IMG/VR virus record: IMGVR_UViG_2778261667_000009
Direction: 5' to 3' (one strand)
From: a virus
Taxonomy: Duplodnaviria > Heunggongvirae > Uroviricota > Caudoviricetes
DNA: 37,282 bases
The first letter of the stretch is position 1, and every line of letters starts with the position of its first letter. Positions 298-32,525 of the stretch are shown here, piece after piece. The position numbers were made by a program, and so were the translations under genes. The notes beneath the pieces were generated by a model. The model searched no databases, had not been told where the DNA came from, and saw only the letters and a program-made list of their open reading frames with translations.

Positions 298-3053
298 CAG
301 AATGGCACCGTTTCAATAATCACACAGGGGCGCATTACATCCCCCATGCGGTTCTCAAGATACAGATAACCAGCACCATTTGGTGGCATAAATGATACGG
401 TGAATTTACCATCTGATCCCGTTGTACCAGTTAAGACAGATGAACTAAGTTCCACGTTAATTTTGTTAGACGACTGTTGTGGTGCAAAGTCTTTATCCGA
501 CGATACTCCAAGCAACATCCCAACCGCCCTATAATTTCTGTCTCGTTCATGGTCGAATAAAGAAACTATAGCCATTTTGGTTTTTGTCGAAATAGGTATG
601 CGCAGTGCCTGATCGTCGTTCAGGGTGGCAAAGAACTTATTGTCTCCCAGCCTGACAAACTCACCAGGGTTTATGATTTGCGCCGTGCGCAGGTCATACA
701 TACTGAACTGATTAGCTGCGCCACCGTCAAGATAGAATCGGTTTCCACCCTGATCGGAGATGTTTTTAAGAACCTTGGTCCCCTCACAGCGAATAAATGA
801 GAACTCATCATTCCCTGTATCCTGAGAGGATACGTAAACTACATTTCCGCCAATGATCAGGTTTTCTAATGTCAGCGCGTCACCGGCCCCGGACGCAATA
901 ATCCCAGCCAGCGTGACCTTTTTACCTATTGAGTTTTTCAGAGTGACTGGCAAGGTGCGAATATAGCCGTCATCTGCTCCACAGAACAATTCCAGCAACC
1001 CAATTGCTCGATAATAGGGTCTGGTGTCTGTGCTGTAACTATCTGCATAGTTGTACCCAATCTCGGTAAACGTGTCGTCATACACGAGGCCGTCTATTGT
1101 CAGCCCTCCTCCGTAGGTAAGGCGAGCGCAGCAGCGCGCCACATAACCGTGCACACGACAATCTTTGAGTGTTTCTCGCAAACCACGGAACGCGTATGGC
1201 AGCCAGCAATCAACGACTAAGCAATTTGTATAGTTGGAGCCGTATGCCGCTCCATGTGACCCCATACCCGAATTTTGGGTTTTGCCTACAGGCCAGAAAG
1301 CAGTTCCGGTATAGTCAACGCCTCCACCAGAGACGACGCTATTCACAACTTGCGTCTCCCAACTAATCATCTGCGCACCGATAATATCGATACCGCGACG
1401 GCAGCGATATGTCTTAACATTTTCAACCATGGCACCGAAACACTGGTTGATGCTAATTCCGTATCCTGTCCCATTCCAAGTATCATAACCTCGGTTTGCA
1501 TCCATCGCGGTAACATCGCGGAGCACAGGAAGGTATGATCCTCGTACACGCAGACAGGTGTCAGAAAAACCACTAACAGTTATACCCTCTATCAATGTAT
1601 CGGTAGAATACAATACATCCAGCCCTCTGAATCCAACGTCACCGGCCTTAGCATTGCTAGTGAGCTCGCGTGAAATAACAAACGCTCCTGTCATTTTAAA
1701 CGTAATAGGTTTGGATATGGTAACTACAGTCGCCCATTCCATCTTGAACTGATCTCCAGCAGCTGGAATGTTATTGAAAGCAGACTGACGACCACCGATT
1801 GTCAACAAGTTTCCGCTATAATGCGAAATGTATCTGGATTGACCAGCATTAGCGCCAGTTGTGAACGTAATACGGACATTTGCATTTTCGCGGGTCAATG
1901 TTATACCTGAAACTGTAAATGAAGCGCCGCTAGTTGCCGCTGTAACGGTTCCATATTGTATGTTTGACGCCGGAGCGGCATACCGCAACGTGTTGCACAG
2001 GCCAACACGCTTTGTAGCGTGATTTACAGATGAGACTTTGCAAACCTGCCCCTCTATATCCTGTCCACGATTATCTGTCTGAATTAGCCTGGATGTCTGG
2101 AAGCAAACGAGATCCCCGACTTCAATATCAGCAGTATCGGATAGGGTAACAACACCAGCATTTCTGGCAGCATCAACTACGAGGTTAACTTGTTTTAAAA
2201 ATACCCCTCGTATACGAATAGCGTAATCCGCGTCATAATTAGTAGCGTCAGGTGTGACTTTAGTGCTAACAAGGTGTACCCGCCCGTTCGCAATCCATTC
2301 AGTTACAGCTTGGCTATCTTGGGATCGCTTGACATGAATTGACGTATAATTATACACACCTTGTTCAAACACCAGTCTGCGCCCCTCATCTACTGCTACC
2401 TGAGACGCTGCCTGAATCGGGATTGTGTAGTCAGAGATTCCATCTCCCTGTTCACAGAACCACAACAATAAAATATCGCCATCATATTCCCGCTTCCATC
2501 GCCTACCGATAGCGTCGACCAATACAGTACCTCCATTATCATCAGTGGTTGAGTCGGTATCGTCACGCACGAATATGCCATCTCCACCATCGTTAATTAC
2601 AGAGCGTCCATAGCACTGGATTTTAATTCCTGCGCCAGAGTACGAACGGATGTCGTCGTAATTTCCCGCACCTATAAGCGACGCCCCACCAACCCCAGCT
2701 AATTCCATACTGAACTGATCAGGGTCATATTTAAGAACATTAGGAAAATAGAACTGCTGCGTGCCATATGCATCATATACAGCCATAGAATGGCCTTGCA
2801 CAGTTACAAACTTGGCAATCTGTCCGTTATATACCGGATATCCGGCAGCGTTAATGATGATTGGTTGAGATACAGGAACGTGAGAACCGTCTTCATTCTC
2901 CACATAAACCTGAATCTGGTTTTCTGGATTTACCGGGTCAGTGTCAATTTTACCGATATAAATTTTGCCATTGGCAACTGCTTTAAAAGAGCGCGCCATA
3001 GTGAAGAGTTGCGATGGCATACTCACTACAACATTGGCTGTAATGTCTGTCAT
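297..3053 (-). CDS. Tailspike protein (P22 gp9-like head-binding N-terminus, divergent receptor-binding body)
   Basis: First ~110 aa ([13 protein letters not shown]...KYDPDQF) closely match the P22 tailspike head-binding domain as I remember it. The remaining ~800 aa are Gly/Thr/Asn-rich and beta-helix-like, unlike P22 gp9. Confidence 0.85.
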
Positions 3054-3121
3054 TTAATTTGCTCCAGATACAGAAAATCGCTGCAGCGTTGCCGCAGTGA
3101 TGCATTATTAATCAAACAAAG

Positions 3122-3136
3122 AGACCGCCGTGGTCT
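3122..3136. promoter_or_regulatory. Putative Mnt-type operator palindrome (AGACC-N5-GGTCT) between tailspike and mnt
   Basis: Inverted repeat AGACCGCCGTGGTCT in the 146-bp divergent gap, reminiscent of the P22 Omnt dyad. Confidence 0.3.
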
Positions 3137-3199
3137 TATTGAGGATGTAACCATCAGATAATAAGATGCCGATCCACTCACAAAAGCGAGGCATCAAGA

Positions 3200-3451
3200 A
3201 TGGGAAGAGATGACCCGCAATTTAATCTGCGGCTACCTTACGAATTAAAGGAAAAAATAAAACAGCGAGCCAAATCCAATGGCCGCTCTCTTAATTCAGA
3301 ATTAGTTCAGATAGTGACTGACGCTGTATCAAAGCCATCCAAAATTTCAGGCTATCGAGACGATGCGGAACGCATCGCTGATGAGCAGTCCGAACTTGTT
3401 AAGAAGATGGTGTTTGATACGCTGAAGGATTTGTACAAAAAACCCACCTGA
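3200..3451 (+). CDS. mnt: Mnt repressor (ribbon-helix-helix, Arc/Mnt family)
   Basis: 83 aa, MGRDDPQFNLRLPYELKEKIKQRAKSNGRSLNSELVQIV...KKMVFDTLKDLYKKPT, near-identical in pattern to P22 Mnt. Confidence 0.85.
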   Translation: MGRDDPQFNLRLPYELKEKIKQRAKSNGRSLNSELVQIVTDAVSKPSKISGYRDDAERIADEQSELVKKMVFDTLKDLYKKPT

Positions 3452-3467
3452 CGGTGGGTTAATTTTT
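3443..3467. terminator. Bidirectional intrinsic terminator at mnt 3' end
   Basis: Hairpin CCCACC-tgac-GGTGGG followed by TTAATTTTT on plus and preceded by an A-run (T-run on minus). Confidence 0.55.
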
Positions 3468-3550
3468 GCATTTACCTGGGCCATATTGACTACTTATAAA
3501 ATGAGATCAATATTTAATCGCCCAATAACGGGTGTATGTTGAGGTATATC

Positions 3551-3730
3551 ATGGCGAAAAAACCAGGTGAAAACACAGGAAAAAACGGCGGAATATACCA
3601 AGAAGTTGGCCCACGCGGCGGTAAGAAAGACAATTTTGCCACCGTCAAGGACAACGAAAGGCTTCCGCCAACAACAAAGCCAGGTCATGGCTGGGTATTG
3701 GATAAGCGAACTCCAGACAGCAAAAAGTAA
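3551..3730 (+). CDS. Small Gly/Lys-rich hypothetical protein (59 aa), possibly YjzC-like
   Basis: ATG at 3551 with GAGG 7 nt upstream. Sequence MAKKPGENTGKNGGIYQEVGPRGG...; family assignment is from memory only. Confidence 0.4.
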   Translation: MAKKPGENTGKNGGIYQEVGPRGGKKDNFATVKDNERLPPTTKPGHGWVLDKRTPDSKK

Positions 3731-3743
3731 TAATCAAGCCTGG

Positions 3744-4109
3744 TCACTCCGGCTTTTTGATATGTCGCTCGCAGAACTCAACAAGCCTGCTCATTAAATA
3801 GCAGTAAGTCTCGTTGGCTCTTCCTGGTTCAACATCAACACCGACCCTTGAGCAGATATCGAATGCCATGTGAGCGCACTCATGGGCAATAGTAGATAGT
3901 TTGCCATTGAACACGCCTATCACATGCAAAACACCATTCTCGCTGCTCATTGTATGAGACGCTCCGTTGGCATCCGAGTCCTGCACGTCCACGCCAAGTT
4001 TTTGATGCAGGCGTTGCCATTCTGGAAAGTCTCTACAAAACACAATTGTACCGCTCTCAAAGAGCGGAACGAGCATCTTTGGTACGTTTCCAATGTTAAC
4101 TTTTTTCAT
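3744..4109 (-). CDS. Small HExxH protein, probable standalone ImmA/IrrE (M78)-like metallopeptidase
   Basis: 121 aa from ATG 4109 (AGGA upstream). Motif [14 protein letters not shown] resembles the M78 'FTlaHElgH' zinc-binding motif. Confidence 0.45.
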
Positions 4110-4656: not shown

Positions 4657-6498
4657 CTACTGCCGGGTAGCTTCGTTAACTAAGAGCGGGCGCACGGCAG
4701 TAGCCGCCTGATTTAGCGCTCTTTCATAAGCTGGCGTTCCAGCTTTAGTGTTTGCCAGACGTAAGAGCGCATTCCTTGCTGCTTTGGACTCATACAAGCG
4801 CATCATTGCACCGAAACCAGCCTCAAGCCCCATTGATACGCCAAGAGTCGCAGTTGCGCCAATCGTCCTTATCCTGTTGGCTTGTGATTGCCCAGTCTGA
4901 GTTACTATATTTGCGGTGTCTGACCTTGCTGTTTGCTGTAGAACTTCATGAAGAGCATCAAGCTCTTTCATGTGCTTTCCAGAAAAAATAGTGTTGTAAA
5001 TTTCACCGCCTGACTGAGATTTCAGCTTATTAACTTCAGTGATGAACTTGGCTGGAGAGTCACCGGCCTTTTCCGCTATTTTGCTGACGTAAGCAGCACG
5101 CATAGCATCTTTCCCTTTATCATCCAGTGCGCTCCAGATTCGTTTCACGTCAGATGGTTTTCTGCTTAATACAACGGTATTTATAAGTTCAGGACTGGCT
5201 TCACTGCTTGCCTTGTTGAGCTTGTTAGCAATGTTTTTATTAAGCACCTTATTATAAACGTTTGCATAATCGGAATTTGCTTTAAGGTATTTTGCTGCGT
5301 CTGATGCACCGAGGTTTTTAGCAACTGCGTTACGAAGGTCTTTTGACATTGCATTCTCTACCATATTGGTAGCTGCTTTTGCCTGGTTGGGGAAGACCAT
5401 AGCATCTCCCTGTACATTAGATCTAAATGCTGTTCTGTGCTGACGCAAGAGATCAAACGTAACATCCAAATCAGTTGCAGGGTTTGCTAATTCTTCACGT
5501 AGGTTACGCAAGGATGTAAGCAGGCTTTGATTGGCAGACGTTCCAAGTCGTTCCTGTCTTGCGATCGCTGTATTCAGAGCATTCATGGTATTTGTGGTAT
5601 CAACTGCAGCATTACCCATTTTATTGGTGACGTCATTGATAACAGCGCCAGCGGCATCCTTCCGTCTCCTTAGCGTGGTGGTCAGAGATTTCACCACATC
5701 ATCCGGGTTGTACTCACCAAAACGGTCAAAATAATTACTTACCAACTTACTACGCGTTGCATATTGCTCTGCCCTTTTACTGCCAGTTCCAAGAATGGCC
5801 CCCTCAGCACCCTGAGTAAGGCCACGAGTGAAAGCATTTTTCGGTGGGATGACATCAGATGTCATTGGTGTCACACCCATTGATTCTGAGGTGGCAATTT
5901 TTTTCGCCACTTCTGGCGCAATATCGCCTTTTATAGCCGTTATTCCGCGGCCTATTCCCTTTGCTGCTGCGGAAAGAACCCCCTGAGCGGCAAGGTTAAC
6001 TCCGGCATTTTTAGCTGCATTTTGTGCGAAATCGCCTTTCTGGTTTGCGGCTTCTGCCAGTGATCCAATAGCCATGCTTCCTGCCGTTCCAACTCCTGGA
6101 ACTAAATACCCGCCAATTGTTTCTCCAGCTTGAGCGTAGGGGTCTGTCGGTCGATCGACTGGACGATAGACATCATCCAATACTTTTGGCCCACCAAGCC
6201 CCTGACTGATTGCATTAATCAGACTTGCGCCACCCTGCAATACGTCAAATGGTATGTTTACCAGACCACGACCAGCCTGCTCTGCAATTTGTCCTGCACT
6301 TTGACCACCTGTGAGCCAATCGCCAGCTTGTTGCATCAATGATGGTTCTTCACGTGCTGGTTCATTATTGGCCTGATTAACTGTTTGTTGCTGAACAGCC
6401 TGACCAGCAAAATACTCATCAATGGCGGTGCCAATATCTTCGGTGCTCGTGCCATCAGGAAAGGTAAATGTCTTACCGTTTGCAGTTACTTTCATCAT
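4657..6498 (-). CDS. Ejection (E) protein, P22 gp16-like
   Basis: 613 aa, Ala/Gly/Gln-rich; size and position after gp20 match P22 gene 16. Confidence 0.75.
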
Positions 6499-7910
6499 TC
6501 CACCGTAAATTGAATGCCTGATTTTGAGGTATATGATCCAACCTGATTCCGTGGTTCTCCTGAAGGTGTCGAATCTTGTGCTGGCGCTGCGTCAGTATTC
6601 AATGACATATACCGCTTAACGGCACTCCCCAATGATTCACCTTTTTTAACATCCAACCCCAATATCTGACCGCCATTACGCGATTGTCCAGGGTTGCCAT
6701 TCGCGCTCATCCACTCAGCTTTAAACTCATTAAACTGCGCGTTTCGTCGCTCAAGGTTTGCCATTGCATCAAGCCATCTTGCAACCGTCTCAGGGTTATC
6801 CATGTCAGTTGGCGCACCCTGTCGAACGATCTCAACGTCTTTATCCGTTGCTGGGCCGGGAGGTAGGAATTTAAGAACCTGACTGTTAACAAGGGCATTT
6901 TGGCGAATGCGCAAATCACGCAATGTCGTATCGCTTCCGGTAAGTTTTGCGAACATGTTCTGTGCGTTACCGAACAAACCTGTCGTTGGTTTTTCTGCTC
7001 TGAACTGTTGAGCAAGCGCACTCATGGAATTGGCTGAGTTTGATGATGCTGTGGCATTGTTTACAGCTGTCTCGATGCCTTTTTCCATGTTTACTGACAG
7101 CTTAGGTGCTTCGCTAATCAACTGCTGAGCCTTTTCCTGCGCTTGCTGCATCTTAAACCCGAACTCTTGCTGATCCAGAGCCAAGCGTTGTGCTGCGATA
7201 TTGTGCCCAGTCATTGCTGACTGATAGGAAAGGTTTTGCCCTCTCGCCTGAAGTGCTTCACCAGCCTGATTGCTGCGGATTGTCTCTGCCAGCCTGCCTC
7301 GGTCAATCTCACGACCAGCCATCTTGTCCTGAACAGCAAACGCCTTTTCTGGCCCAAGTGCACCGAGAGACATAGTAGTCAGCATGTGTGATAGCTGCTC
7401 TGGATTCTGAATACCTGTCTGAATCATCCAGTCAGCATTCGCCCCCACGCGATTTAACCTGTCCTTGTTATCAGTAATGAATTTACTGTAGGCTTCCGGT
7501 CCCTGAGAAAGAGCGACGTTAGCCCTCATGGCTAAATCGCCCATATCGTTGCGTTGCTGCTCATTAAGACCGGAAAACGCCTGTTGTGCCTGTGCAACAA
7601 ACGCTGGATTTTCCTGGGCAAACTTAAATAGTCCCGATGGATCACCAGAAGCCCATGCATCAGCGTGAACCTTATTGAACGCACTAATAGCTTTCTGTTG
7701 CTGTTCCTGCTTATAAATATCAGCAACTCCAGCCAGACCACGTAACGCGGTCAGACCAACGTTATTTGCACCTGATCGAGCCAGTTCATTGTTTTCGCGG
7801 ATCAGACCAAGCGTTGCGTTAATGTCGCTTGCCTTTGGCGCATTCTCATTTTGCGCACCGATGCCAGCAAGAAACCCACCAGAATTAATACCCTGTTGCC
7901 ACGTAGCCAT
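6495..7910 (-). CDS. Ejection protein, P22 gp20-like
   Basis: 471 aa, same length and position as P22 gp20; start overlaps the upstream gene. Confidence 0.75.
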
Positions 7911-24616: not shown

Positions 24617-24982
24617 ATGGATAAAAAATACACAGATAAATTAGAAGCTTGCGAGTACTTGCAAAATGTTGACATTTGGCTTGATAATGGAAATGTTGAC
24701 ATGTTTAAAGTATCAGATATTTTAAACAATCTGTTGAAATTAGGTGATTTTGAGAAATTTGACCATACACTTTCACTTTTAAAAGCTGAAAGCTTTGCAG
24801 AGAAAATAAAGTTTCGTCTTTCACGAGTTGAAAGTCAACGGGATAGTATATTACACGTTATCAGAGAAGGTGATAAGAATAAAAACCTTAGAAAAATAAT
24901 ACTAAAATCATATGACACAAAAAAAAACAGAAATAAAATCACTATTCAATATATTCTCCAGAGAAAGCGGGCTATATTTTAG
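24617..24982 (+). CDS. N-terminal fragment of a split glycosyltransferase-like gene
   Basis: 121-aa ORF with AGGA RBS; runs through the A9 tract at 24919-24927 and stops 55 nt later. Deleting one A fuses it in frame to the downstream ORF. Confidence 0.4.
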   Translation: MDKKYTDKLEACEYLQNVDIWLDNGNVDMFKVSDILNNLLKLGDFEKFDHTLSLLKAESFAEKIKFRLSRVESQRDSILHVIREGDKNKNLRKIILKSYDTKKNRNKITIQYILQRKRAIF

Positions 24983-25937
24983 GAATAACCATGGAAATCA
25001 CTACAGTTATTTTGAAGATGATTTCTTAGATTACAGCAATGCTGTAAAAAACACACTTAGAGACAAAGGTTTTGCGAAAAAACTTTTACAGCACAATCAA
25101 GAAAAATTTAGAATTCTCGATGATGCGATAGTTCATACTTTCAATCATAATTTCTATGCCATTTCAGATAAAAATGGTTATTACGACTCAACAAATGCAG
25201 CCCGTCTGGCAAAACTTAGCCATGTTAATTATATTAATAACGACAATGAAATAAGATATATTGATAAGGCTATTTTTTTGCCCATAGACCATGCATGCAA
25301 TAACTATTATCATGCTCTTAGTGAATGTTTCGGAGGATTGAAATTTATAACAGAATTACCTGATGACATTCCTATAGTCTTTACGGAAGACAGATTTAAT
25401 GTATTGGATTTTATTGCATCGCGCCTATGTATAGACCGCAAACGTTTTATTTCTATACAAACACTTGCTAATACTCGAATTAAAAAGGCACTACAATTAT
25501 ATCCATATAGTTTTAACTGGAGTGAAGATATTTTTCATTTTTTTAAAAAAATATCATACCCACAAACAACAGACTCTAAAATATATATTTCAAGGAGAAA
25601 GTCAAGCCGTGGCCCATTAAATGAATTTGAAGTTGAAAATGAGCTTAAAGAATTAGGTTTTGATATACTATACGCTGAAGACCTTGACTTTGCGCAACAG
25701 GTTTCAATTTTCTCAAATGCAAGCATCCTTATTGGCCCTCATGGCGCAGGCCTCACCAACATTCTTTTTATGCCTAAGAATAGCACCCTTATCGAAATAT
25801 TTAACAGTGAATATATCCAACCTGATTTCTATCTAAGATCTCGCCATAATAACATGAAATATGCATGTACCATTCAATTTAATAATACCTTCAATATCGA
25901 AGAGATAAAAGAAATCATAGAAAGGTGTCAAGAATAA
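24912..25937 (+). CDS. Glycosyltransferase, GT61/DUF563-like (C-terminal portion of the split gene)
   Basis: 341 aa; C-terminal region ...SRRKSSRGPLNEFEVENELKELGFDILYAEDLDFAQQVSIFSNASILIGPHGAGLTNILFMPKNSTLIEIF matches the DUF563/GT61 signature as remembered. No SD before its ATG; strongly AT-rich by eye. Confidence 0.5.
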   Translation: MTQKKTEIKSLFNIFSRESGLYFRNNHGNHYSYFEDDFLDYSNAVKNTLRDKGFAKKLLQHNQEKFRILDDAIVHTFNHNFYAISDKNGYYDSTNAARLAKLSHVNYINNDNEIRYIDKAIFLPIDHACNNYYHALSECFGGLKFITELPDDIPIVFTEDRFNVLDFIASRLCIDRKRFISIQTLANTRIKKALQLYPYSFNWSEDIFHFFKKISYPQTTDSKIYISRRKSSRGPLNEFEVENELKELGFDILYAEDLDFAQQVSIFSNASILIGPHGAGLTNILFMPKNSTLIEIFNSEYIQPDFYLRSRHNNMKYACTIQFNNTFNIEEIKEIIERCQE

Positions 25938-27446: not shown

Positions 27447-28462
27447 AGCTCCACCCCGTAAATCCAGTCAGTGTTCGTCAGGTCGAGTTTTGGTTTTCCG
27501 GCTGTCACGCCTGCCTGTTGCTTGTTTCGGTTGATTTCGAGCTGGGTCCACTTGTCGCGGAGTTTGGCCGGACTTAGCACGTTACCGGACCAGAAGTTGT
27601 CCTGGCATGCCCAGCGGAACAGCACGCACATGTCGCGGTGGTTACGTCCGTCACGTTCACGCATCAGGCGGATATCGTTAGCCCACCCTGCAAAATTCGG
27701 TTTTCTGGCTGATGGCGCGATGGTCTTCACCATGTCAAACATCCACTCTGCGGCGGTCAGGTCTTCTGCTGTCCCCCACTTGCTGCCGCTCTGAATTGCA
27801 GCATCTGGTTTCACCACAGGAAGATCGTTTTCTGGTTGGTCAGAGGATTCGCCAGAATTCTCGGACGAAAAAGATTTTATATTGTCTTTTGTTAGTTTGT
27901 CTTTTGTGTTTACCTTATTCGGGTAAACGCCTTTACCTGATTTGGGTAAACTTTTCTTACCTGATTCAGGTAAATTTACCTCTTTCAGGTAAACTTTATT
28001 TTTCTTACCTGATTCGGGTAATGTTGACCATTCACTGACCACATTATTAATACCGATATTCCGCCCGCTCTGAATCAAAATCCCACGCTTTACCAGAACA
28101 CTTTTTGCAGCAGAACACTTGTGCGGCAATATCCCGGTCAATTCGGACAGTTGCTCGTTGCTCACCCAATCCAGTTTTTTATTAAAGCCATATGTTTTGC
28201 GCATGACAGCCAGGAAGACCAGAAGCTGGTGCTGTGTTAATCCGGCCAGCATCACAGCTTCCAGCAACTCATTTGCAATGCGCGTATAACCATCATCGAG
28301 ATCTGCCACGCGCGGCTCCTTTTGTGCCGCATCCGGCACTGGAAAATTGAATATCTCAGCAGTGTTTGCCATAATTCCTCCCGCAATGAGTGTGTTACGA
28401 TTTGCACCTGAAAGTCGGTTCTGTTCCAGCAGACCGGCTTTCGCCATTTCTGAACCTGTCAT
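27443..28462 (-). CDS. O: Replication initiator O-like protein
   Basis: 339 aa; N-terminal region (ADLDDGYTRIANELLEA...LLVFLAVMRKTYGFNK) resembles lambda O; iteron array lies within the gene; stop overlaps the P start. Confidence 0.8.
   Translation of the reverse strand: MTGSEMAKAGLLEQNRLSGANRNTLIAGGIMANTAEIFNFPVPDAAQKEPRVADLDDGYTRIANELLEAVMLAGLTQHQLLVFLAVMRKTYGFNKKLDWVSNEQLSELTGILPHKCSAAKSVLVKRGILIQSGRNIGINNVVSEWSTLPESGKKNKVYLKEVNLPESGKKSLPKSGKGVYPNKVNTKDKLTKDNIKSFSSENSGESSDQPENDLPVVKPDAAIQSGSKWGTAEDLTAAEWMFDMVKTIAPSARKPNFAGWANDIRLMRERDGRNHRDMCVLFRWACQDNFWSGNVLSPAKLRDKWTQLEINRNKQQAGVTAGKPKLDLTNTDWIYGVEL
27860..28021. repeat. Replication origin: five 17-bp dyad iterons (TTACC-N6-GGTAA, one G-to-A variant per right arm in two copies) plus adjacent AT-rich tract
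   Basis: Iterons at 27910-27926, 27933-27949, 27957-27973, 27976-27992 and 28005-28021, with an AT-rich stretch at ~27860-27909 on the O-downstream side, as in lambda ori. Confidence 0.65.
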
Positions 28463-29004
28463 ATCGCCCCCAGCATGGTAGTAACCATCGCCATCAATGG
28501 ACCAGCCAGATCTGGGTCCACACGAAACATCGACACAATACCTTCACTAATTTCCTTCAGTTTCTGGTGGCGTGGTGCGTTGAGAATGACAGCCTGTTTT
28601 GCCTCACTGAGTTCCTTTTCCATTTCAGCCAACCTAGCCATGAAGCTATCCTGCTCAACCAGGTAACCGCGATATTCCAGCGGTAGTACCGCCAGAATTG
28701 CCGGGGTCAGTTCACGCACGTTATTTCGGTATTTTTCAGAATCGAATTTGTTATCGAGGAAGCGGAACAGCTTCTGGCGTGCACGGCTGACATCATCAGG
28801 GAAATCGATGGTGCCGCCGCCCTGCTCCCGATACTCATTCACAATGAGTGCGGCAACAACATCCTGATTATCTGCAGCCGACCAGGCGCGGACGGCATCA
28901 CGGATTTTTTCGTGGCCTGGAGCTTGTTTTGTTTGAGAACGATTTATCACCGCAGTCGGGCTAAATCCGCTAGTCTGTTGGTATGTAAGTGGTTGCATAG
29001 TCAT
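28459..29004 (-). CDS. YdaT-family (CII-position) protein
   Basis: 181 aa; EYREQGGG...TPAILAVLPLEYR resembles Rac prophage YdaT; sits between cro-like gene and O. Confidence 0.55.
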   Translation of the reverse strand: MTMQPLTYQQTSGFSPTAVINRSQTKQAPGHEKIRDAVRAWSAADNQDVVAALIVNEYREQGGGTIDFPDDVSRARQKLFRFLDNKFDSEKYRNNVRELTPAILAVLPLEYRGYLVEQDSFMARLAEMEKELSEAKQAVILNAPRHQKLKEISEGIVSMFRVDPDLAGPLMAMVTTMLGAI

Positions 29005-29028: not shown

Positions 29029-29256
29029 TTAGGCGGCAGAATTACTCGCGTTAAACAATGGTGCGAGGTCGGGACGAATATCTGCTGGTTTAATCTTTCC
29101 ACCAGTGGCTGAGACAATTTTCATTACATAGCGGGCATCAATTCCGCCACCGTGTAGCCAACGCCAAACAGTGGGTTGGGCTACACCGCATAGATCTGCC
29201 AGTCGTTTTTGACTACCTGTAATACTGATTGCGAGTTGAATGGTTTGATTTGTCAT
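29029..29256 (-). CDS. Cro-like HTH regulator (YdaS/Cro family)
   Basis: 75 aa from ATG 29256 (AGGA upstream); HTH LADLCGVAQPTVWRWL; divergent from cI. Confidence 0.6.
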   Translation of the reverse strand: MTNQTIQLAISITGSQKRLADLCGVAQPTVWRWLHGGGIDARYVMKIVSATGGKIKPADIRPDLAPLFNASNSAA

Positions 29257-29366
29257 TATCAATTCCTATTGGTATTGCAATGAACAAATAATAGCAATGC
29301 GTATTAATCATAACAATAGCAAAACGTGTTTTGACCATCAATACGCAAGCGTATAAATTAAAACTT
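29257..29366. promoter_or_regulatory. OR/PR/PRM region: repeated ATAGCAAT/ATTGCAAT operator motifs with divergent promoters
   Basis: Minus-strand PR-like -35 TTGTTA (29316-29311), 17-nt spacer, -10 TATTAT (29293-29288). Plus-strand PRM-like -35 TTGACC (29331-29336) and -10 TATAAAT (29352-29358) ending ~8 nt before the cI ATG. Three AATAGCAAT-type motifs overlap these. Confidence 0.45.
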
Positions 29367-30059
29367 ATGAAAAAAGAAACTCTTGCTGATCGCTTAAACC
29401 TAGCGATGGAACAATCTGGAATGTCTCAAGGCGCTCTTGCAAAGGCGTCTGGCGTAGCTCAACCCACAATCTGGAGACTGACAAGCGGCAACGCGCGCGG
29501 CTCAACAAAAATTGTTGAAATAGCTAATGCATTGGGTGTTCGAACAGAGTGGCTCTCATCAGGCATAGGCCCGATGAGAAATGACGGTCAACAATTAGGG
29601 AAGCCTACTGCCAACCATCCCAAATACTTCAAGATTGACGTTCTTGATATAGAAGTGAGTGCCGGGCCGGGAGTCATCAACCGTGAGTTTGTAGAAGTTC
29701 TACGCTCGGTTGAGTACTCATTTGACGATGCTCGTCACATGTTCGATGGCAGGAAGGCAGAAAATATCCGCATCATTAACGTACGCGGTGACAGCATGTC
29801 AGGAACGATCGAACCAGGTGATCTTCTGTTCGTTGATATCACTGTTAAATCTTTCGACGGTGATGGTATCTATGCGTTTCTGTATGACGACACCGCCCAT
29901 GTAAAGCGCCTGCAAATGATGAAGGATAAGCTGCTGGTTATCTCTGATAACAAGAGCTACTCACCGTGGGACCCGATCGAGAAAGACGAGATGAACCGCG
30001 TGTTCATCTTCGGGAAAGTCATCGGGAGCATGCCGCAGACATATAGAAAGCATGGGTAG
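29367..30059 (+). CDS. cI: CI-type prophage repressor (HTH plus S24 LexA-like autopeptidase domain)
   Basis: 230 aa from ATG 29367 (track's longer form uses TTG); N-terminal HTH (MSQGALAKASGVAQPTIWRL), C-terminal GDSM and Lys-containing S24-like domain. Confidence 0.8.
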   Translation: MKKETLADRLNLAMEQSGMSQGALAKASGVAQPTIWRLTSGNARGSTKIVEIANALGVRTEWLSSGIGPMRNDGQQLGKPTANHPKYFKIDVLDIEVSAGPGVINREFVEVLRSVEYSFDDARHMFDGRKAENIRIINVRGDSMSGTIEPGDLLFVDITVKSFDGDGIYAFLYDDTAHVKRLQMMKDKLLVISDNKSYSPWDPIEKDEMNRVFIFGKVIGSMPQTYRKHG

Positions 30060-30188
30060 AAATCAGAACAAAATTATGCACTTCGCTTTTCAGCTTACTG
30101 TAGTAAGGCAATAAATTAGGCTTGACGTTAGCTATCAGGTGCACAACAATAATTGTTGAATAATAGGTTTTTTTAACTAGGTGATAAC

Positions 30189-31328
30189 ATGGCAGCGGTT
30201 GAATTTCAATTGTCTAGGAAGATGATTGATTGGATAGCAAATTCTCAAGGAGTTTCTATCGAAACTCTTGCTGACCAAGTCATGCCCAAAAAGATTAATA
30301 AATTTCTTAACGGAGTGGTAAGTAAATCCGCAGCAGAAAAACTGGCAAAAATTGGAGGAATCCCTTTCGGTTTTTTATTTCTTGAAACGCCACCAACTCC
30401 AGCCAAACCCAAGATCCCTGACTTAAGGCAAGCTATAAATAGCCGTGAGTTAGGAAAAGATTTTTTTGATGTTTACTATGATATAGAATATAAACTTGAG
30501 TGGTACAAAGACTATTTAAGAGAAAATGGTAATGATGATCCACTCGATTTTATTGGTAAATTTAAATTTAATAGAAAATTAAATTATAAGGTTGTTGCTA
30601 CAGACATAGCAAACACAATACATTTTGATATACAAAAAGAGATAAAAAATGTCACTTTTGAGAGCTATTTTTCTAAAGTGGCAAAACTAATAGAAGACAC
30701 TGGCGTATTAGTTTTCAAGAATGGTGTTGTGGGTAATAATAATAAAAGAAAACTTGACACGCGAGAGTTTCGTGGTTTCTGTATATCTGATAGCGTTGCT
30801 CCGATCATTTTTGTAAATAGCTCGGACGCGTTATCTGCGCAGGTATTTACATTATTTCATGAGGTGGCTCATCTTTGGCTTGGAGTCGATGGAGTCTCTG
30901 GGTGGGACACAGAAAAAAACATAGAATCTTTTTGTAATAAAGTTGCTGCTGAAATCTTAATGCCTGATAATCTCTTCAAATCTTTCTGGCTTAATGCATC
31001 CAGCGATAATAATTATTATCGAGTAAAAGAGGTTTCTAAGTTATTTAAGGTTAGTGATTTCGCTTGTGCAATCAAAGCGTTACAATTAGATTTGATAGAA
31101 AGAAACACTTTGGAGATAATTAAAGATCAAGCTTACAATAAGCCCAAAAAAGAATCTAATGGTGGTTCTTTCTTTAACACATTACCTGTTCGTAACAGTC
31201 CAAAACTTACGAATATAATAATTTCCAAAGCAATGTCTCAACAATTACCATTAAGGGAAGCAGGCGTACTGCTAAATGTAAAAGCAGATACAGTTGTTGA
31301 ATTTTATAAAAAACGAGAATCTCTATGA
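30189..31328 (+). CDS. HTH-fused ImmA/IrrE-family (M78, COG2856-like) metallopeptidase-like protein
   Basis: 379 aa; N-terminal HTH-like segment, central RGFCISDSVAPIIFVNSSD...VFTLFHEVAHLWLG matching the M78 HExxH signature, plus ~120-aa C-terminal extension. AGGTGA RBS; AT-rich by eye. Confidence 0.55.
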   Translation: MAAVEFQLSRKMIDWIANSQGVSIETLADQVMPKKINKFLNGVVSKSAAEKLAKIGGIPFGFLFLETPPTPAKPKIPDLRQAINSRELGKDFFDVYYDIEYKLEWYKDYLRENGNDDPLDFIGKFKFNRKLNYKVVATDIANTIHFDIQKEIKNVTFESYFSKVAKLIEDTGVLVFKNGVVGNNNKRKLDTREFRGFCISDSVAPIIFVNSSDALSAQVFTLFHEVAHLWLGVDGVSGWDTEKNIESFCNKVAAEILMPDNLFKSFWLNASSDNNYYRVKEVSKLFKVSDFACAIKALQLDLIERNTLEIIKDQAYNKPKKESNGGSFFNTLPVRNSPKLTNIIISKAMSQQLPLREAGVLLNVKADTVVEFYKKRESL

Positions 31329-31837
31329 TTCATAATGGAAAATTCTTAATTGATAGTAATGTCTTCATAGAGGCAAAAAACTTTGCATATAACTTCAATT
31401 ATTGCAAAATATTTTGGGATTTTCTTCTCGCTTTACACATGAATGGTCTGATTTATAGCATTAATGCTGTAAAAAAAGAACTATGTGCAAAAGATGATCC
31501 ATTGTGTAAATGGATTAAAGAAGAGTTACCATCATCATTCTTCGAAGATGAGCATAGTTCAATAGAAAATTATGCAAAGTTAATAAATTGGTCAACTAAA
31601 TTAGATGTTACCGAAAAGGCAAAGTTTGACTTTGCAAGCCATGAAAAAGCAGATGCTTTTTTAATAGCCCATGCGATGACACATGGATATACTATTATTA
31701 CCCATGAGAAACCATCCGGTGGCAAACCTAAAAAAAGAATAATGATCCCGGATGCTGCTGCTTCTCACGGCGTTAAGACATTAACACTATATGAATTTCT
31801 TCCAAGATACGCTAGTCATAATTTTTCTTTGAAATAA
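31325..31837 (+). CDS. PIN-like (DUF4411-like) putative nuclease, partner of the upstream peptidase
   Basis: 170 aa; N-terminus KFLIDSNVFIEAKN is PIN-like with a first acidic residue; start overlaps the upstream stop (ATGA). Family assignment from memory. Confidence 0.5.
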   Translation: MIHNGKFLIDSNVFIEAKNFAYNFNYCKIFWDFLLALHMNGLIYSINAVKKELCAKDDPLCKWIKEELPSSFFEDEHSSIENYAKLINWSTKLDVTEKAKFDFASHEKADAFLIAHAMTHGYTIITHEKPSGGKPKKRIMIPDAAASHGVKTLTLYEFLPRYASHNFSLK

Positions 31838-31845
31838 AACGTCCC

Positions 31846-31873
31846 GGCCACCGTGCCGGGTTTTCTTTTGTCC
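31846..31873 (+). terminator. Intrinsic terminator ending the cI-peptidase-PIN operon
   Basis: Hairpin CCCGGC-cacc/gt-GCCGGG followed by TTTTCTTTTG, 9 nt after the PIN-like gene stop. Confidence 0.6.
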
Positions 31874-31994
31874 CCTCCCCTCATCACACAAACCGTTCGA
31901 AAAACCACCACAACCTCCCTTCAGTTATCGCTATGCGATGCAAGTCACAAAATTAATTCTTTTTGCTATCAAACAGTTAATATCAAAACACATC

Positions 31995-32050
31995 AATCAA
32001 TAGCAATAAGTATTGATACCACCAATAGCAATAGCTATTATTACCATGTC
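31995..32050 (+). promoter_or_regulatory. OL/PL: -35 TTGATA (32013-32018), 17-nt spacer, -10 TATTAT (32036-32041), with ATAGCAAT operator motifs
   Basis: Near-consensus sigma70 promoter pointing into the gam-bet-exo operon; overlaps 16-bp dyad AATAGC-aata-GCTATT and an upstream AATAGCAAT copy, the same motif as at OR. Confidence 0.5.
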
Positions 32051-32147
32051 GCAACAACACAACGATACGGCAACCACCTGATTCACCGTTGCGATGACCG
32101 CTTAGATCCGCAGCTTGAATTTCAGCAGGCTCCGGGGAGTGCGAGGG

Positions 32148-32525
32148 GTGAAGCGGACGCGTGAACGTCGGTGTGACCAGCTGAAATCAACTCAACACTT
32201 CATACCTCAGTCGCTTCAACGAGGCGGCTTAGTTATGACAACCGGCGGCCATCCACCGCCTGAATACGCGCAGAAGTCTCTATATGTTCAGCAGCCCAGC
32301 TTACGGGCAGGAGTTTTTATGGTTCATCAACATTACGGAACGCAGACCGTTAATCGCGGTGCGGTCATGCCAGGAATGCTGGTCAAACACAAAGATGGTA
32401 CCTGGACTGCATCAGCTAATTTACGCGGACGGCTTTATCTGCATCGCGGCATCGAGCGCACTTATACCCGTGACTTGCTCGTGGAAATTTTTCTCGACGG
32501 ACGCGGCAACGGCCTGAATCACTAA
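32148..32525 (+). CDS. Hypothetical basic protein in the N/kil position (start uncertain: GTG 32148 or ATG 32236)
   Basis: From GTG 32148 (GGGAG 9 nt upstream) the N-terminus MKRTRERRCDQ is arginine-rich like an N-protein RNA-binding motif; from ATG 32236 (GAGG upstream) it is 96 aa. Only ORF between PL and gam. Confidence 0.3.
   Translation: MKRTRERRCDQLKSTQHFIPQSLQRGGLVMTTGGHPPPEYAQKSLYVQQPSLRAGVFMVHQHYGTQTVNRGAVMPGMLVKHKDGTWTASANLRGRLYLHRGIERTYTRDLLVEIFLDGRGNGLNH

Follow-up and report, generated by a model that had tools for sequence, protein, structure and literature searches.

The pairing of a helix-turn-helix (HTH)-COG2856 protein with a PIN protein was predicted in 2009 to be a three-component toxin-antitoxin (TA) system that is abundant in prophages (Makarova 2009, PMC2701414), and a 2017 study placed the DUF4411.1 subfamily in precisely such an arrangement (Matelska 2017, PMC5499597). 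The pairing was characterised in 2026, as the Mycobacterium tuberculosis VapBC52 system (Rv2514c/Rv2515c; PDB 9VZY/9VZZ; Singh et al., Nucleic Acids Res, June 2026; PMC13273310). According to that study, VapC52 is a tRNase that cuts anticodon or variable loops, and the antitoxin binds it at a VapB52:VapC52 stoichiometry of 1:2. VapB52 has three domains: the XRE-like N-terminal domain (NTD) binds the toxin dimer from its outer side, an IrrE/CapP-like peptidase core follows, and a four-helix C-terminal domain (CTD) blocks the active site (PMC13273310). Single-stranded DNA (ssDNA) induces N-terminal self-cleavage of VapB52, for which a conserved "FR" motif at the junction of the NTD and the core is the proposed site; an active-site mutant (H216A/H220A) shows no cleavage, and the zinc-coordinating Cys229 serves as a "cysteine switch" in an auto-inhibited state (PMC13273310). 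Here, we compare these systems with a two-gene module, genes A and B, in a 37,282-nucleotide (nt) stretch of Caudoviricetes DNA (IMG/VR record IMGVR_UViG_2778261667_000009), referred to below as the window.

As judged from its sequence and predicted structures, the module is a new member of the VapBC52-type family and not a new kind of system. We hold its identity as a TA pair with good confidence. We also consider it probable, largely by analogy, that the module is a two-gene type II TA system of the VapBC52 type, carried as a repressor-slot moron by a lambdoid prophage, in which a self-cleaving antitoxin would release the toxin and thereby abort infection. Regarding its main biological role, we lean slightly toward phage defence.

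The module lies between cI and a terminator just ahead of the left operator and promoter (OL/PL) and is co-oriented with cI, which is the position of rexA-rexB in lambda. The G+C content is 0.30 to 0.36 over positions 30200 to 31800, compared with ∼0.48 to 0.53 in the flanking DNA. An initial annotation, made from the sequence alone, had noted two AT-rich genes overlapping by ATGA between cI and a terminator before PL, and the open reading frames (ORFs), the drop in G+C content, and the hairpin are all as it described them.

Domain architecture and comparison with VapBC52

Gene A (positions 30189 to 31328, plus strand) encodes a 379-amino-acid (aa) protein, the predicted antitoxin and sensor, which carries FTLFHEVAHLWLG at residues 220 to 232. 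An XRE-like five-helix NTD (about residues 1 to 66) is followed by the junction motif D78-L79-R80 (nt 30420 to 30428), an M78 core with H224-E225-x-x-H228 (nt 30858 to 30872) and E246, and a CTD that forms a four-helix bundle (about residues 328 to 379). The protein matches Pfam Peptidase_M78 (1.2e-13), PHROG 2439 (3e-76), and the PADLOC model capP (1e-14). Its AlphaFold2 model, which like that of B was built from an alignment of 42 homologues, has a predicted local distance difference test score (pLDDT) of 88.9; the best fold matches are CapP and IrrE/PprI, and the NTD matches XRE-type HTH proteins. Both the HTH-like N-terminal region and the M78 match proposed for this protein in the initial annotation are therefore borne out.

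Conservation was counted in 178 unique relatives of A and 117 unique relatives of B. Residues H224, E225, H228, E246, and C249-N250 of A are invariant in the 178 relatives, as are D78 and R80 of the junction motif, while the position between the latter two is occupied by L (128 relatives), F (32), R (10), or M (8). Sequence and model together indicate that A is a three-domain protein with an XRE-like NTD, an IrrE/CapP-like zinc peptidase core, and a helical CTD, in which the predicted catalytic site is intact.

Gene B (positions 31325 to 31837, plus strand), whose product begins MIHNGKFLIDSNVFIEAKN, encodes a 170-aa DUF4411 PIN-like nuclease, the predicted toxin. The DUF4411/PIN assignment that had been anticipated for the second protein is found in its matches to Pfam DUF4411 (1.1e-37) and PHROG 11126 (2e-67) and in its AlphaFold2 model (pLDDT, 87.5), for which the top Foldseek matches are all VapC PIN toxins (3H87, 6A7V, 9H6A, and 3ZVK). 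The acidic residues D10, E52, D110, and E128 are invariant in all relatives (117/117). These data point to B being a PIN-fold nuclease with an intact acidic tetrad.

In a profile search of the PDB, a single entry, 9VZY, held homologues of both proteins (three A-type and six B-type chains). The A family profile matched this entry with an E value of 2.9e-22 over residues 10 to 334, and the B family profile matched VapC52 (9vzy_D) with an E value of 1.2e-13. The resemblance extends from gene order to individual residues. Both loci consist of two genes, with a large antitoxin gene upstream and a DUF4411 PIN toxin gene downstream, and both antitoxins are large, A (379 aa) being close to the ∼380 to 415 aa of the type, with a three-domain layout. 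They share structural neighbours, namely, CapP, IrrE/PprI, and PrpR for the core and C.Csp231I and BswR for the NTD. Also common to the two systems are the HEXXH-plus-Glu zinc site, the Cys-Asn that follows this Glu, the PIN acidic residues, and the junction motif, D78-L79-R80 of the module being aligned to the D-F-R of VapB52 (with L, not F, here).

The two systems differ in three respects. The identity is ∼25 to 30% over the aligned cores, and VapBC52 is a chromosomal locus of M. tuberculosis, whereas the module occupies a slot in an enterobacterial lambdoid prophage. Furthermore, the switch residue C229 of VapB52 corresponds to Ser237 in the window protein, and Ser is found at this position in 92% of the relatives (164/178; the others have Asp [8], Thr [4], Val [1], or Cys [1]). 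This last difference bears on regulation and leaves the family-defining architecture untouched.

Among other described systems, the predicted COG2856(Xre)-PIN/DUF4411.1 pairs resemble the module in that an HTH domain is fused to a COG2856/DUF955 protease and encoded upstream of DUF4411. The papers on these pairs, which also remarked on how common the arrangement is in phages and prophages, were computational and took the protease to act on a distinct Xre repressor or antitoxin; VapB52, the homologue that has been characterised, cleaves itself instead. In the NetFlax survey, PIN-like toxins and RosmerTA defence systems were both connected to an ImmA antitoxin hub (Ernits 2023, PMC10440598), and RosmerTA (RmrT/RmrA; Millman 2022) is a validated phage defence system (PMC10440598). 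Like the module, RosmerTA combines an antitoxin made of an HTH and an ImmA-type peptidase with swappable toxins, and it is also encoded by phages (Gordonia phage Kita); unlike B, the characterised RmrT toxins depolarise membranes and are not PIN nucleases. We rejected membership in RosmerTA, as the RmrA models match A weakly (17 to 30 bits; E values of 6e-8 to 8e-4) and B has no RmrT match. CapH/CapP (Lau 2022; PDB 7T5T) differs in that CapP has a GAF domain, which is absent here, and in that it works by transcriptional derepression, as opposed to the release of a bound toxin that would apply to the module. A CapH/CapP-regulated CBASS (cyclic oligonucleotide-based antiphage signalling system) was likewise rejected, the neighbours being cI, DUF4411, OL/PL, and kil-gam-bet-exo, with no CapH, CD-NTase, or CBASS effector gene.

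Three further candidates were discarded. In an ImmR/ImmA pair, a stand-alone ImmA protease acts on a neighbouring XRE repressor that has no protease domain; here, the adjacent repressor contains a Peptidase_S24 domain, and A, which includes an HTH domain, is associated with B and not with a repressor. In canonical VapBC systems, VapB is an 8- to 13-kDa protein with an AbrB, RHH, or PHD domain, whereas A has 379 aa and an M78 peptidase domain. PD-lambda-2 comprises a HigB-like toxin, an Xre-peptidase, and a P4-antitoxin-like protein; here, the match to PD-Lambda-2_B is weak (8.5e-4), and there is no HigB-like or third gene. Finally, lambda rexA-rexB and cargo such as BstA (PMC8585504) share with the module the position between cI and OL/PL and a presumed exclusion role in the lysogen, but they have no sequence or mechanistic relationship to it.

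Linkage of the two genes and cargo of the cI-kil slot

A scan of IMG/VR viral contigs recovered 80 loci with relatives of A, ranging from 100% down to 32% identity. A DUF4411 gene lies directly downstream on the same strand in 78 of the 80 loci, and the spacing between the two genes is within an overlap of 38 nt and a gap of 3 nt (−38 to +3 nt) in 77 of them; the 78th (L012) has a broken B gene. Of the two remaining loci, one is cut by the contig end, and the other has a YafO-family toxin in place of DUF4411. In the latter (L075; IMGVR_UViG_2588253799_000002, positions 4905 to 6905), the A homologue retains an intact HELTH motif and is separated by a 264-nt gap from the YafO-family toxin gene (Pfam, 2e-8) downstream of it, which is a case of toxin swapping on the same antitoxin scaffold.

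The surroundings of the pair vary. An S24-type repressor is encoded directly upstream in 22 of 52 nonredundant viral loci, and other loci are near Q/lysis, tail-fibre, or methylase genes. A Klebsiella Rac-like prophage carries a 53%-identical pair in the same slot, behind a RacR-like repressor. In Actinobacillus equuli, the pair stands alone amid housekeeping genes, and in Herbaspirillum, it is part of an island with an Abi_alpha gene. The A-B pair is thus an autonomous, tightly linked, and mobile module, the genes of which are almost never apart in relatives down to ∼32% identity.

At ≥99.6% identity, the module itself is present in 33 of 5,426 complete Escherichia coli genomes, in every case on the chromosome and together with this cI and kil; it already has a generic annotation in RefSeq. 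Full-length homologues of both A and B occur across Proteobacteria. Since the module is kept in 33 E. coli genomes and has such homologues, A and B are real genes and not chance ORFs. When positions 30060 to 31880 were compared with deposited phage genomes by megablast, only a 36-bp terminator segment (31842 to 31877) was matched, so that no sequenced isolated phage carries the module. This segment is 97 to 100% identical in deposited lambda-like phage genomes and seems to be the right-hand recombination junction of the cargo slot, i.e., a mosaic boundary.

Many other complete E. coli genomes match both flanks of the module but carry a different middle. We compared the occupants of the slot between cI and kil in E. 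coli genomes (L093 to L098, L009, and L010). The alternatives are a SIR2 protein (PADLOC PDC-S25, 1e-234; ThsA-like), a hypothetical protein with a Ser/Thr kinase (mad6/PD-T4-6-like), a hypothetical protein with an ASCH protein (PDC-M11A/B), a DUF6932 protein with a hypothetical protein (PDC-M63A/B), and a HipA kinase with a DUF3037 protein (PDC-M66A/B). The last pair has been experimentally validated as defence system DS-6/HipAD (PMC13092281). In addition, the slot can hold a Panacea-domain protein with a partner (SocA_Panacea, from the Pfam scan), a DUF7946 protein (DUF7946/DUF7947; no PADLOC or Pfam match), or nothing at all. The identical repressor protein, WP_000712396.1, lies ahead of different cargo in three strains: the module, PDC-M11, and DUF7946. 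The slot downstream of cI had been put forward in the initial annotation as a hotspot for lysogen-expressed exclusion genes, and the alternative defence cargo found behind the same repressor in E. coli agrees with this: the cI-kil slot is a compact cargo hotspot of known or candidate defence systems.

Proposed mechanism and alternative explanations

Following the architecture in 9VZY, a single A would hold a dimer of B inactive, its NTD bound to the outer surface of the dimer and its CTD covering the active site. The HTH domain of A probably represses the module's own promoter through a palindrome at positions 30144 to 30158. An infection or stress signal (ssDNA in the case of VapB52) would activate the peptidase of A, the conservation of which is observed, and A would then cut itself at the conserved D-[L/F]-R of the NTD-core junction, as suggested by VapB52. 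The complex would fall apart, and free B would cleave tRNAs or other RNA, stop translation, and arrest the cell, so aborting the infection. The layout suggests that expression in the lysogen may come from read-through from the repressor promoter PRM, from the module's own promoter, or from both. Given its position and neighbours, the module may act as an abortive-infection or exclusion device against superinfecting phages, as rexAB does in lambda. In favour of such a role, antitoxins of the HTH-ImmA type also serve the validated defence systems RosmerTA and PD-lambda-2. The initial annotation had already envisaged a sensor-protease coupled to a nuclease. The coupling has been shown experimentally for the distant VapBC52 (PMC13273310), in which VapB52 cuts itself and not a separate repressor.

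Several observations weigh against a VapBC52-like defence module. Identity to VapBC52 is low, with single-sequence E values of 8e-7 (A) and 6e-6 (B), and B matches no PADLOC model, RmrT included. In M. tuberculosis VapBC52, protection against D29 was obtained only with VapC52 overexpressed alone, and coexpression of VapB52 and VapC52 gave none (PMC13273310). Given Ser237, the activation step, and possibly the trigger, may differ from that of VapB52. An ssDNA trigger would also fire on the prophage's own induction and Red recombination functions. Furthermore, loss of full-length A is survivable, as two E. coli genomes have an IS1 element in A with B intact. In one of them, E. coli ATCC 43886 (L091; NZ_CP024256.1, positions 1630 to 4055), IS1 is inserted at about codon 188 of A and splits it into an N-terminal ORF of 188 aa and a C-terminal ORF of 205 aa, the latter comprising the peptidase core and CTD, and the intact B is identical at 169 of 170 residues; the other is E2528-C1 (H37). 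Cells with an IS1-split A would survive either because the insertion is polar on B, because the C-terminal fragment still neutralises some of the toxin, or because B is only weakly toxic.

A different kind of disruption is seen in L012 (IMGVR_UViG_2908572912_000001, positions 6287 to 6292), where A is intact and the codon of B for the catalytic Glu52 has changed exactly from GAA to TAA. By its sequence, this locus appears to be a naturally toxin-inactivated copy.

Such decay variants (the IS1 insertions in A and the stop codon at position E52 of B) also speak for a rival explanation, in which the module serves chiefly for addiction or stabilisation, or as a general stress-responsive TA, and has no anti-phage role of note. 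It would then maintain the prophage, or itself, in the lineage because cells are killed or arrested on losing it, or it would slow growth after DNA damage. The pair behaves as a selfish mobile two-gene unit, standing alone amid the housekeeping genes of Actinobacillus and occupying several prophage positions (near Q/lysis, tail-fibre, and methylase genes), and the documented roles of VapBC52, which does not protect from D29 when intact, are copper tolerance and virulence (PMC13273310). We nevertheless regard this explanation as rather unlikely. The same slot in sister prophages holds known or candidate defence systems, including the validated HipA-DUF3037 pair, and the related HTH-ImmA antitoxin systems RosmerTA and PD-lambda-2 defend. 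The strict conservation of the protease site also points to active sensing and not to passive decay of an antitoxin. Addiction or stress roles and defence are, in any case, not mutually exclusive.

ImmA, IrrE, and CapP each cleave a separate XRE-family repressor, and A is encoded directly downstream of a repressor gene, as immA is after immR. On these grounds, A could be an ImmA-type anti-repressor protease that cuts a resident or incoming XRE-type repressor to control induction, with B as an accessory; the upstream repressor of the Klebsiella Rac-like prophage, which lacks an S24 autoprotease domain, would be in line with such a role. In the window, however, cI has its own S24 autocleavage domain, and A has its own HTH as well as the conserved D-[L/F]-R motif at the junction, where VapB52 is proposed to cleave itself. 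B is found downstream of A in 78 of 80 loci, compared with an S24 repressor upstream in 22 of 52, and the pair also occurs outside prophages, all of which makes an anti-repressor improbable. We consider it very improbable that the module is inert or decaying in this prophage, a passenger that currently does nothing: it is rare (33/5,426 genomes) and always accompanied by one cI allele, suggesting a single acquisition, and disrupted copies occur, but 31 of the 33 full-coverage E. coli copies have no IS1 insertion, neither ORF is truncated here and no catalytic residue is missing, the Shine-Dalgarno sequence, coupling overlap, and terminator are preserved, and homologues are conserved over long evolutionary distances.

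Returning to the VapBC52-type reading, a self-cleaving antitoxin that releases its toxin, we offer one tentative extension, which we think less probable than not by a good measure. The proteobacterial and prophage clade, which has a nearly invariant Ser in place of the switch Cys, might sense a signal other than bulk ssDNA, e.g., a particular protein made by a superinfecting phage or an intermediate of its replication. If true, this would explain how a prophage that makes ssDNA during induction (through Red exo/bet and rolling-circle replication) spares itself its own toxin, and the module would represent a variant of the self-cleaving protease-antitoxin mechanism that tells self from non-self and is tractable in E. 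coli.

The locus now places a protease-gated PIN toxin system of the predicted VapBC52 type in the lysogen-expressed slot of an E. coli lambdoid prophage, a slot in which numerous known or candidate defence systems replace one another behind a single repressor and which could be mined systematically for cargo. E. coli is a genetically easy host in which to ask if the module aborts infection at its native level and which signal A senses. The absent cysteine switch and the prophage's own ssDNA sharpen the question of the trigger. Otherwise, the module is an expected kind of prophage cargo.

Regulatory signals and prophage context

The spacer between cI and A is 129 bp long. No plus-strand terminator was found between the cI stop codon and A, so that PRM read-through into A is also possible. 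A consensus scan identified a candidate promoter of the module itself on the plus strand (TTGACG-17-AACAAT, positions 30122 to 30150; 9/12 matches). Its putative −10 hexamer is overlapped by a perfect palindrome, CAACAAT-A-ATTGTTG (CAACAATAATTGTTG, positions 30144 to 30158), which is a candidate operator for the HTH domain of A and thus for autoregulation, although the sequence is suggestive only. Upstream of A homologues, palindromes were enriched between −80 and −17, being present in 21 of 68 regions, compared with 11.5 ± 2.9 in shuffled sequences; the control windows gave 7 of 68 and 3 of 66 regions. Because many lineages of A homologues have no perfect upstream palindrome, we go no further than to infer autoregulation by A.

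A Shine-Dalgarno sequence (AGGTGA, positions 30179 to 30184, plus strand) is located 4 nt ahead of the ATG of A. The stop codon of A and the start codon of B overlap in ATGA (positions 31325 to 31328, plus strand), which suggests translational coupling. Directly 3′ of the B stop codon, a G+C-rich hairpin, CCCGGCCACCGTGCCGGG, followed by a T-tract (positions 31843 to 31870), forms a predicted bidirectional intrinsic terminator that closes the module.

Upstream of the module, the cI-type repressor gene (positions 29331 to 30059, plus strand) ends at 30059 and has HTH_3 and Peptidase_S24 matches by hidden Markov model (HMM). Its start in RefSeq is the ATG equivalent to window position 29367 (230 aa), not the TTG at 29331. 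It is divergent from a YdaS-like gene in the cro position (29029 to 29262, minus strand) and a YdaT-like gene in the cII position (28459 to 29004, minus strand).

On the other side, a PL-like promoter site lies ∼130 bp beyond the terminator. The region assigned to OL/PL (positions 31998 to 32041, plus strand) contains a promoter-like sequence, TTGATA-17-TATTAT (32013 to 32041), within AATAGCAATA operator repeats. The operator-like motif AATAGCAA(T/A) is present in four copies between cI and cro (29261 to 29324) and in three copies at the PL-like promoter (31998 to 32039). We assign this region to OL/PL because the promoter-like site is amid repeats that also fill the cI-cro intergenic region, and the AATAGCAA(T/A) repeats are likely the OR and OL sites of this immunity type.

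Past OL/PL lie kil-, gam-, bet-, and exo-like genes. The early-left operon appears to begin with a 68-aa kil-like ORF (32319 to 32525), which is followed by gam, bet, and exo, and no N-like antiterminator gene was found between OL/PL and this first early-left gene (positions 31880 to 32525). Scans of the window for tRNAs and Rfam families found nothing, and the prophage therefore encodes no tRNAs as possible decoys or targets.

A second AT-rich insert is located left of the replication genes (positions 24617 to 25937). It contains a 121-aa ORF, for which no Pfam match was found, overlapping the gene for a 341-aa Glycosyltransferase-61 protein (2e-23). In the otherwise near-identical PM06121 prophage, a recombinase gene, a small ORF, and emrE are found where this insert sits.

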